NCBI GenBank assembly: GCA_037138215.1
Contig: JBAXIU010000001.1
Coordinates: forward strand, 1-57,148
From: Candidatus Peregrinibacteria bacterium
Lineage (GTDB): Bacteria > Patescibacteriota > Gracilibacteria > CAIRYL01
Length of the DNA: 57,148 bases
Direction: 5' to 3'
Shown: piece by piece, positions 28,798-30,855 of the stretch
Layout: every line of letters begins with the position of its first letter
How positions within the stretch are numbered: the first letter of the stretch is position 1
Notes under the pieces: model-generated
The model's input: the letters and a program-made list of their open reading frames with translations, nothing else
What the model was told of the DNA's origin: nothing
Databases searched by the model: none
Program-made: the position numbers and the translations under genes

Positions 28798-30744
28798 TCA
28801 CCGTAAGTTTTTTGCAGGAGCAATCTTAAATTCAGTGGCATCAAAAACCAATATTTCAGATTTATCTTCCGAAATTTCAAGAATATATTTGCCATCTGGT
28901 CTTTTTTGCTGAGCAACAGAAATAATCTTTTGACTCAAGCTCACTTTAATCTGATCAGAGACCTTATCATTCAAGCCTGCCAGCTTTAGTGCTGATACGA
29001 TCTTCATTGCATTCAGGAAAAGACCTTTATTCGGATTTTTCCAATTTTCACTATTTATCGCCACCGCAGAAATCTTCTGAAAAATATCTTTTTTTACATC
29101 TATGCTGCTTTTCACCGTCTCTTTTTTAGCCTGATTAAAAAGAGGAGTTGTATTTAATACATCTATCGCCTTATTCTTCGCCTCTTGCACTTTTGCACTC
29201 ATTTGGTCAAATACATTCACATCCACCGATTCGCCCATAAATGCCTTGAGAATCATATTATCAAGCGCATCTTCGGAAGGAGCTTCTGCAACCGACTTTG
29301 CTGCCTCCGTTTTTGCTGGTTCTGCTACTGGTGCGGCAGTGGGTATTTTGTAATACTCTTTCAAAAATCTGATTGCCTCATCCACCGGCAGTATTTTAGG
29401 TAAGAGGAGTTGTGCATCTGTTGGATTATTTCGGGGAATCATTTGAAGCGCATCTCCATTGCGTGCCAGTTGTGAATCCTTGGTTTCTGCCGAAACATGG
29501 GTAGCATCGAATACATTCAGCGAAAAATCTTTATAGATCATAAAGTAAGAATGCGGAAGGATTTCAAGATCTACACCACCTCCTAAAGCATCGTTAAAGG
29601 TTTTTGCCACTGTACGAATTTCGTTCTTTTGATCTTCGGTAAGTTGTTCTCCTGTTTCAGATTTTGCTACAGATGCGTTTGCCAAATTTATTGCATCAAA
29701 AACCCGTTGCCGTTTTGAAAACAGGGCAGGATATTTCTCTTGGGTAATATATGGGTTCCCCTTTAATGAGGCTTCTGCTCTATCAAAAGACTCTTGTAAT
29801 GCTTCAATTTCTGCATTGGTGAAGTTTTGCCCACCTGGACTGTCTTTTTCTTTATAATCATTAAGAAACTGTAATACTGAGTCATACCGCAAAGATACAC
29901 CATCTGCCTCAAATTTTTCCATGTCGACCTCATTTGTGCTAGTTGATGCCTCTGCAGTTTTTATTTTTTCCGGTTCTACCGGCACCGACGCGATTTTTTG
30001 TTCCACAGGATTGAAGACCTCCACTGGTTTTGGATCCAATTCCGACTCAATTTTTTTTGGATTCAGCTCAGTAACAGTCCAAGGCTGATTATTGAGTGTT
30101 CCTAATGTCGGACGAGGTAGCTCATCGGTTGGAACCGCCGGTTTAGCGTTTTTCTCCTCCTCTTCAGCTTTTTTTATTTTTCCTAAGGCTTCTTCTCGCG
30201 CGGCTTTTAATTCGGTTTTCAATTTGGGGTATTTATCTTCCTTAGATACAAGCGCGTTGTTAGTTTCCGTTTCATCAGTATCATGTAATAACTCTGTTAA
30301 TGTTTTAATTTGGGAAGAAGAAAACGGCTTCCCATTATTCAGTTTCTCAAATTCGAAATATGCCACTGAGATAGCTTTATACGCCGCTATTATCGATTTT
30401 AGCAAAGGTTCTATCTGATTCTCTTGCTCTTCTGTTAACGCTGCTTCATTTTTTTTTCCGGTTGTATTCACCCCTGGAGTAGCGGTTTTAGCTACTGGTG
30501 CCGTCGGCAGTGAATTGGCTTTTAAACCCAATAAAAATGGTCTTAATTGCTCCCATTTAAAATTCTGCGCTCTGCTTTTATCCGAAGAGATTATTGGGGA
30601 ATTATTATCACTCTTCACCCCATAATCATCTACAAAAGCATAAGCGTATTTTTCTCTCAATGCTAATACATCACTCTCGAGAGAGAGAGAGAGAGAGAGA
30701 GAGAGAGAGACGAAAAGCGCTTCCCCAGTGTTTTTGGTGCACAC
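28798..30744 (-). CDS. Large hypothetical protein, Lys/Glu/Ala-rich, with (SL)n tract at the N-terminus
   Basis: 648-aa ORF. The only in-frame start is GTG 30744 and the first internal Met is ~260 codons in. No motif recognised. Confidence 0.6.
   Translation of the reverse strand: MCTKNTGEALFVSLSLSLSLSLESDVLALREKYAYAFVDDYGVKSDNNSPIISSDKSRAQNFKWEQLRPFLLGLKANSLPTAPVAKTATPGVNTTGKKNEAALTEEQENQIEPLLKSIIAAYKAISVAYFEFEKLNNGKPFSSSQIKTLTELLHDTDETETNNALVSKEDKYPKLKTELKAAREEALGKIKKAEEEEKNAKPAVPTDELPRPTLGTLNNQPWTVTELNPKKIESELDPKPVEVFNPVEQKIASVPVEPEKIKTAEASTSTNEVDMEKFEADGVSLRYDSVLQFLNDYKEKDSPGGQNFTNAEIEALQESFDRAEASLKGNPYITQEKYPALFSKRQRVFDAINLANASVAKSETGEQLTEDQKNEIRTVAKTFNDALGGGVDLEILPHSYFMIYKDFSLNVFDATHVSAETKDSQLARNGDALQMIPRNNPTDAQLLLPKILPVDEAIRFLKEYYKIPTAAPVAEPAKTEAAKSVAEAPSEDALDNMILKAFMGESVDVNVFDQMSAKVQEAKNKAIDVLNTTPLFNQAKKETVKSSIDVKKDIFQKISAVAINSENWKNPNKGLFLNAMKIVSALKLAGLNDKVSDQIKVSLSQKIISVAQQKRPDGKYILEISEDKSEILVFDATEFKIAPAKNLR
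30679..30710. repeat. Dinucleotide microsatellite (GA)16 / (TC)16
   Basis: 32 uninterrupted bp of GA on the + strand, read as (SL)n in codons ~12-22 of the minus-strand ORF. Confidence 0.95.
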
Positions 30745-30855
30745 GGCATACCATGAATCGGTTAAAAATCTTCATGCCATGGTATCACACTCGTTGGTAA
30801 AAATCCAGATTTTATGCCTCCAAACTTCACTTTTAAAGTGGACCGCTTAAGGTTC

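Follow-up and report, generated by a model that had tools for sequence, protein, structure and literature searches.

In this study, we describe a dinucleotide repeat at the 5' end of a 648-codon orphan gene in DNA of a Candidatus Peregrinibacteria bacterium, a member of the Candidate Phyla Radiation (CPR). The analysed stretch, referred to here as the window, is 57,148 nucleotides (nt) long and comprises positions 1 to 57,148 of contig JBAXIU010000001.1 (assembly GCA_037138215.1). The gene is read on the minus strand and is headed by a perfect (TC)16 tract, and all three reading frames that enter the tract from upstream carry a start codon. The tract itself, the logic of its frames and the natural occurrence of 15 and 16 units on otherwise identical sequence are established directly. 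With about an even chance of being right, in our estimation, the tract is slippage-prone and lies within the translated 5' end of the gene, so that changes in unit number would swap the in-frame start codon and the first 12–22 residues of the protein, likely changing its output.

The tract occupies 32 bases at the head of the open reading frame (ORF) (Table 1). Tandem Repeats Finder describes it with a period of 2, 16.0 copies and 100% matches, and a regex scan of the whole window finds five units in the runner-up dinucleotide tract. With 16 units against five, the (TC)16 tract is far beyond chance. Whichever frame is read, it encodes (SL)n or (LS)n. Two features characteristic of contingency loci are found here: the tract is long and perfect with a unit that is not a multiple of three nucleotides, and genomes that are otherwise identical differ in its length (15 versus 16 units).

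Upstream of the tract, ATG 30775, ATG 30754 and GTG 30742 lie in frame 1, ATG 30749 in frame 2 and GTG 30744 in frame 0. A preliminary description of this DNA had placed ATG 30754, ATG 30749 and GTG 30744 at a spacing of 5 nt, one per frame, ahead of the tract, and our minus-strand reading returned exactly these coordinates. The locus was rebuilt in silico with 12–20 TC units to test the frames. With 16 units, GTG 30744 is the sole start of a full-length product (648 aa), as had been claimed. With 15 units, ATG 30749 is the sole full-length start (649 aa); this effect of losing one unit, likewise predicted, is also seen in the two natural 15-unit alleles, both of which are called from ATG 30749. 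With 17 units, full-length products start at ATG 30754 (652 aa), ATG 30775 (659 aa) and also GTG 30742, all in one frame. The predicted switch to ATG 30754 upon gain of one unit therefore holds in silico, but the other two starts sharing its frame had been overlooked. At each repeat number from 12 to 20, one of the three frames yields a full-length ORF. Since all three upstream frames are open and each contains a start codon, the body of the gene is never severed from a start. By comparison, starts that are out of frame with the body give, with the wild-type downstream sequence, peptides of 21–38 aa ending at TGA 30673–30671 or TAG 30665–30663. A further ATG at 30780, also missing from the preliminary description, lies in the body frame yet is unable to serve the body, as it opens a mini-ORF of 2 aa.

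The three-frame arrangement was compared with the background of the window in a post hoc test on both strands. ATG or GTG starts are open in all three frames within 25 codons at 1.7% of the positions, and in the tight form, with such starts no more than 10 nt apart, at 0.24%. The arrangement is uncommon, yet not extreme, and we regard it as unusual but not overwhelming.

Natural alleles were compared between assemblies, that is, between consensus sequences rather than reads. The 90%-identity cluster of the window protein has four members. Two of them, P0004 (ENA assembly ERZ27300156) and P0001 (ENA assembly ERZ27300174), are 649 aa long, begin with MPCAPKTLGKRFS- and were independently called from ATG 30749. 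At the DNA level, ERZ27300156 (L002) contains (TC)15 and ERZ27300174 (L001) contains (TC)8-GC-(TC)6, that is, one unit fewer than the window together with one T>G substitution inside the tract. Over window positions 7171–40749 (33.6 kb), ERZ27300156 (L096 and L002) differs from the window solely by one missing TC unit; over positions 18798–36039 and 39639–53658 (31.3 kb), ERZ27300174 (L001 and L093) shows no difference outside the tract. The pairwise comparison with these two assemblies thus covers about 65 kb and contains zero differences outside the tract. The preliminary description had proposed a count of repeat-length variants in reads; carried out on assemblies, the count gave 15- and 16-unit alleles on identical backgrounds. 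In addition, Logan contigs of SRR7053653 are identical to the window and break inside the tract, as expected for assembly at k=31. The only non-tract differences in any same-population contig are mismatches at window positions 19755 and 19764 in the Logan contig L097 (SRR7053572), which lie no more than 30 nt from the end of the contig's aligned part and are probably assembly tip errors.

The remaining allele is represented by a JGI protein of 623 aa (P0003), encoded on a 46,346-bp contig, which starts at ATG 30671, 7 nt past the tract. This protein begins MYS-LREKY, and its last 620 residues are identical to the window protein. Because P0003 needs ATG 30671 in frame, the simplest route would be deletion of AG 30664–30663, and the protein, taken by itself, implies an allele with this 2-bp deletion just past the tract. 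Such a deletion would free the gene from its dependence on repeat length. Within about 50 bp, each of the four assemblies thus has an allele of its own, with nothing else changed in about 65 kb, which marks the site as a mutational hot spot, or at least as one of real population heterogeneity.

The candidate starts were ranked with a start-context position matrix trained on 24 neighbouring genes, whose starts were mapped from L002 (window 18798–40749). The matrix discriminates weakly to moderately, with leave-one-out scores of true starts from -14 to +8, and it can rank candidates but not decide between them. Of all candidates, ATG 30749 alone has a context comparable to that of real genes; the scores are listed in Table 1. 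ATG 30671 is preceded by G at -1 and -5, positions at which none of the 24 real starts has G. Among the neighbouring gene calls, 23 of 24 begin with ATG; GTG accounts for one of 25 called starts and TTG for none of 25. The first in-frame ATG within the body lies at about residue 270. Given this distance and the use of ATG by 23 of the 24 neighbours, a start upstream of the tract is favoured, and among the possible states ATG 30749 with 15 units has the best support. The GTG form found in the window would then be weak or nearly silent. No Shine-Dalgarno signal was found before the 24 neighbouring gene calls of this region; T/C-rich runs abut their ATG codons (e.g., ccctttttt ATG), and G is absent at -1, -4 and -5. 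This pattern suggests that initiation proceeds without a Shine-Dalgarno site and is led by a pyrimidine-rich leader.

The leader contains a perfect 8-bp inverted repeat with CATG cores, which encloses ATG 30780 and ATG 30754 and whose end is overlapped by ATG 30749; a longer inverted repeat (11 nt at 82%) was also detected. The palindrome by itself explains part of the ATG clustering, as CATG is self-complementary. The inverted repeat around the starts could be a protein-binding palindrome or operator, or could form an RNA hairpin that masks starts. Folding of the whole leader is unremarkable (z = -0.86), and no credible Rfam match was obtained in the leader, where the best hit, to a snoRNA model, reached 16.8 bits and the threshold was 60. 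A promoter-like site farther upstream (Table 1) would put every candidate start on the transcript.

In the proposed mechanism, the (TC)n tract would be a hot spot of slippage within the coding sequence at the 5' end of a lineage-specific Peregrinibacteria gene, and each unit gained or lost would shift the frame by 2 nt. With 15 units, translation would begin at ATG 30749 (MPCAPKTLGKRFS-), with 16 units at GTG 30744 (MCTKNTGEALFV-) and with 17 units at ATG 30754 or 30775 (MVCRVHQKHWGSAFR-), placing a different leader before the (SL)5–6 stretch. The body would always keep a start, while the start codon and the leading 12–22 residues would change. Instead of a clean on/off pattern, much protein would be expected from ATG 30749 and little or almost none from GTG. 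We infer from the sequence that slippage is the cause of the length changes, that it recurs within a lineage, and which starts are translated and how well. The preliminary description had likewise proposed that slippage swaps the start and the N-terminus and never turns the gene off; the frame logic at 12–20 units and the natural 15- and 16-unit alleles support this in part.

Several observations weigh against this reading. GTG starts are rare here, and the contexts of ATG 30754 and ATG 30775 are no better than those of random ATGs. Length variation is known at the assembly level and comprises two length states (15 and 16 units), with the 17-unit state hypothetical, and in the P0003 allele the start is an ATG beyond the tract. 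An Arg enters (SL)n in the T>G allele, and P0003 rewrites the residues past the tract; protein-level constraint on the 5' region is therefore slight, as would also be expected of an untranslated leader. The clustering of start codons may be a by-product of the inverted repeat rather than a purpose-built design. Furthermore, no orthologues were found in which conservation of the start arrangement could be followed.

A rival explanation would be a classic on/off locus or a plain frameshift polymorphism, in which ATG 30749 with 15 units is ON, 16 units is OFF or null, the GTG start is a leftover of the longest ORF and the three-frame starts are coincidental. We consider this explanation unlikely, though a real contender. 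Real-gene-level start context at ATG 30749 alone, the presence of 15 units in both ATG-called alleles and the single GTG among 25 called starts all argue for it, and the two non-body frames are closed within 15 nt past the tract, as is typical of on/off switches. The inverted repeat would account for part of the ATG clustering, and (TC)16 combined with deletion of AG 30664–30663 would restore the frame of ATG 30749, fitting compensation in P0003. On the other hand, starts open into the tract in all three frames occur at just 1.7% of background positions, the 16-unit allele is the consensus of the deposited genome and so not a rare variant, and the start-context matrix from which the preference for ATG 30749 derives discriminates poorly, as its leave-one-out range indicates. 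If instead the tract belonged to the 5' untranslated leader, with the start at TTG 30660 in the window or at ATG 30671 in P0003, its length would be neutral or would tune the pyrimidine-rich leader. Local genes are indeed preceded by T/C-rich runs instead of Shine-Dalgarno sites, the JGI call P0003 does start 7 nt past the tract, and the differences among the four alleles are confined to sequence upstream of TTG 30660 and include an Arg-creating substitution in one allele, as in unconstrained sequence. However, in the window and in L001, L002 and L004, ATG 30671 does not share the body frame and meets a stop after two codons, TTG is absent from the 25 neighbouring calls, and no other in-frame ATG is present for about 270 codons. 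Both proposed starts also score at the 51st–52nd percentile of random ATGs, with ATG 30671 carrying the G residues at -1 and -5. We regard a start beyond the tract as unlikely.

A stronger form of our reading, more doubtful still, would make the locus a three-state contingency locus without an OFF state, in which (SL)n is the core of an N-terminal export or anchoring signal on a fast-evolving, lineage-specific surface or host-interaction protein, and slippage, by exchanging the start codon (ATG or GTG) together with the charged leader, tunes its amount and possibly its destination among the cells of a population. In two of the three N-terminal forms, a basic leader precedes the (SL)5–6 stretch. 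Its best 12-residue hydropathy is modest (1.3–2.1), no cleavage motif is visible and one natural allele has an Arg in the stretch; a role of (SL)n as a signal-peptide core is speculation. A technical origin would reduce the tract to an ordinary fixed microsatellite, its apparent variation arising from PCR or sequencing stutter and from the choice of the assembler in a low-complexity tract. Dinucleotide tracts stutter in amplified short-read libraries, the Logan contigs break in the tract, and the three assemblies may have reads or a project in common. Nevertheless, MEGAHIT-style contigs (k141_ names) easily span a 32-bp tract and give the majority path. Three consensus alleles, one with a substitution inside the tract, and a fourth with a 2-bp deletion outside the repeat, together with zero other differences in about 65 kb, are hard to obtain by random error alone, and we hold this origin to be very unlikely.

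We further compared the locus with known repeat-based systems. In most translational repeat switches, each ON state is matched by two OFF states (PMC4235727). Exceptions contain several upstream initiation codons in different frames with different translation rates, as in Haemophilus influenzae lic2A (work of Dixon et al. 2007, J Bacteriol 189:511, cited in PMC4235727). The present locus resembles lic2A (and lic1A) in that a simple repeat lies at the 5' end of the ORF, start codons in more than one frame upstream are each open into the repeat, and slippage would pick the start, possibly in a graded manner. It differs from lic2A in the repeat unit, which is the tetranucleotide CAAT there and the dinucleotide TC here. 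Moreover, all three frames have a start here, one of them only a GTG, and the use of these starts is putative. The lic2A product is a lipooligosaccharide glycosyltransferase of a pathogen, whereas the gene described here is an orphan of an uncultivated CPR bacterium.

In Helicobacter pylori oipA and related outer-membrane protein genes, CT repeats are found in the 5' signal-peptide coding region, and in oipA they drive on/off switching by slipped-strand mispairing (PMC10564699). Both loci have a CT/TC unit in the 5' coding region that encodes Leu-Ser repeats and varies in length, in oipA between isolates. This is distinct from the present locus in that out-of-frame lengths of oipA are OFF with premature stops, the ON state being marked by the conserved signal-peptide end FWLHA (PMC10564699), whereas each frame here has a start that reads through to the body and no two frames are OFF. 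In addition, neither a clear signal peptide nor a cleavage site can be recognised here, and homology to the Hop family is lacking (no Pfam, NCBIfam, PHROGs or PDB match, with phmmer returning the protein's own cluster). Within the CPR, a Gracilibacteria (BD1-5) genome contains a hypervariable PTD-repeat surface gene (PMC6851277). There too, a population is near-identical genome-wide save for one repeat locus in a lineage-specific gene; however, that locus is an in-frame 9-nt array with synonymous variation, involving neither a frameshift nor a choice of start.

Table 1. Features of the (TC)n locus and its surroundings in the window. Start-context scores are followed by the percentile among all ATGs.
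Feature	Coordinates	Strand	Start context	Details
(TC)16 dinucleotide tract	30679..30710	-		(GA)16 on the + strand; length polymorphic between assemblies
ATG, frame 2	30747..30749	-	2.2; 93rd, about median of true starts, best candidate	In body frame at 12, 15 and 18 units; MPCAPKTLGKRFS-; called in both ENA assemblies
GTG, frame 0	30742..30744	-	0.7; 87th	Only upstream start in body frame at 13, 16 and 19 units; MCTKNTGEALFV-; annotated start of MEI7510560.1
ATG, frame 1	30752..30754	-	-3.1; about 64th, no better than random ATG	In body frame at 14, 17 and 20 units; MVCRVHQKHWGSAFR-
Extra ATG, frame 1	30773..30775	-	-4.8; about 48th, no better than random ATG	MKIFNRFMVCRV... at 14, 17 and 20 units; absent from the preliminary description
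GTG, frame 1	30742	-		Full length at 17 units; absent from the preliminary description
ATG-GCA-TGA mini-ORF, frame 0	30772..30780	-		ATG 30780 closed after 2 codons by TGA 30774-30772; stop overlaps ATG 30775
ATG downstream of tract	30671-30669	-	-4.4; about 52nd, random-ATG level	Out of frame in the window; start of JGI protein P0003 (MYSLREKY...)
TTG	30660	-	-4.5; about 51st, random-ATG level	
Stops closing the two non-body frames	TGA 30673-30671 (frame 1); TAG 30665-30663 (frame 2)	-		Just past the tract, within 15 nt
Perfect 8-bp inverted repeat, 22-nt spacer	30748..30785	-		ATACCATG at 30785-30778; CATGGTAT at 30755-30748
Promoter-like TTTAAA-17-TAAAAT	30809..30837	-		Consensus match only; about 55 nt upstream of ATG 30754
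Orphan gene, 648 codons	28798..30744	-		GTG start, MCTKNTGEALFVSLSLSLSLSLESD...; K/E/A/L-rich, predicted mostly helical
127-aa hydrophobic orphan protein	28304..28687	-		110 nt downstream of the 648-codon gene

The window protein is deposited as MEI7510560.1, a hypothetical protein encoded by a metagenome-assembled genome. The coding signal of the 648-codon ORF is 0.32 bits/codon in frame 0 versus about -0.6 in the other two frames; the 24 neighbouring genes score 0.40 +/- 0.12. Its GC content at third codon positions (GC3, 0.33) is the same as that of the neighbours. By codon statistics, the ORF is a real, native gene. The 648-aa protein has no Pfam, NCBIfam, PHROGs or PDB sequence match. An exhaustive phmmer search of 1.84 billion representative proteins, and likewise a word-index search, returned only its own four-member cluster; protein scans of JGI metagenome contigs and GTDB genome contigs gave no match, nor did an exact 37-mer DNA scan of metagenome contigs. 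A single-sequence AlphaFold2 model is mostly helical with a mean pLDDT of 39.9, a very low confidence that makes it too poor for a fold search.

The 127-aa gene downstream may be co-transcribed with the 648-codon gene, and its product has no relatives in the protein search. Upstream on the same strand lie the genes for fumarate hydratase and adenylosuccinate synthetase (purA); past the 127-aa gene follow rsmI and a ribosomal protein/rpoA cluster. The closest relatives identified via rsmI (84% and 74% identical) keep the ribosomal side and have other genes after rsmI, which is an RNA recognition motif (RRM) protein gene in the relative with 74% identity. No positional orthologue of the 648-codon gene was present in these two relatives, and purA as an anchor gave no close relative in species-representative genome contigs, where the best matches were at most 48% identical. 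Since no relatives were found and the rsmI relatives carry other genes at this place, the 648-/127-aa gene pair looks like a lineage-specific insertion between purA and rsmI, with codon usage and GC3 matching the genome. A consensus terminator scan found none. A perfect 8-bp hairpin is present at 30883–30909 on the minus strand (GCAATCCA-N11-TGGATTGC, then TTCTTCGCTTCG), about 45 nt past the purA stop; this hairpin, not called by the consensus scan, may be the purA terminator.

Other features of the contig were recorded as well. ORF 336–3353 (+) encodes a 1005-aa protein with three bacterial Ig-like Big_12 domains and contains a 303-bp tandem duplication at 492–1082 (two copies, 76% matches); its product is probably a surface protein with repeated domains. 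Runs of eight G residues at 44725–44732 and 45320–45327 (+) fall in adjacent housekeeping genes, for a Mur ligase and a RecF/SMC-like ATPase; two such runs are unusual for a genome of 42% GC, and L093 and L094 are identical there. A complete type I restriction enzyme R subunit (HsdR) is encoded at the window end (53683–56838, -).

The mechanism considered here is of an established kind, and its occurrence in a CPR (Peregrinibacteria) bacterium is the notable part. Contingency loci driven by repeats have been described chiefly in host-adapted pathogens, among them Haemophilus, Neisseria, Helicobacter and Campylobacter, and for CPR bacteria a life attached to host cells is generally assumed. To our knowledge, variation of surface and host-interaction proteins in CPR bacteria is largely unknown. 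A limited full-text literature search on phase variation and the Candidate Phyla Radiation yielded a paper on localised hypervariation in an in-frame repeat array (PMC6851277), which is not a frameshifting repeat switch. If the three-state reading is true, the locus would be, after this limited search, the first slippage-based contingency locus that we have found described for CPR bacteria. Here, one hypermutable site stands on a genome background that is otherwise invariant, and the start codon and N-terminus of a lineage-specific gene change with its natural alleles. Should all three starts be in use, graded multi-start switches would arise outside Haemophilus, in an organism without Shine-Dalgarno-led initiation.

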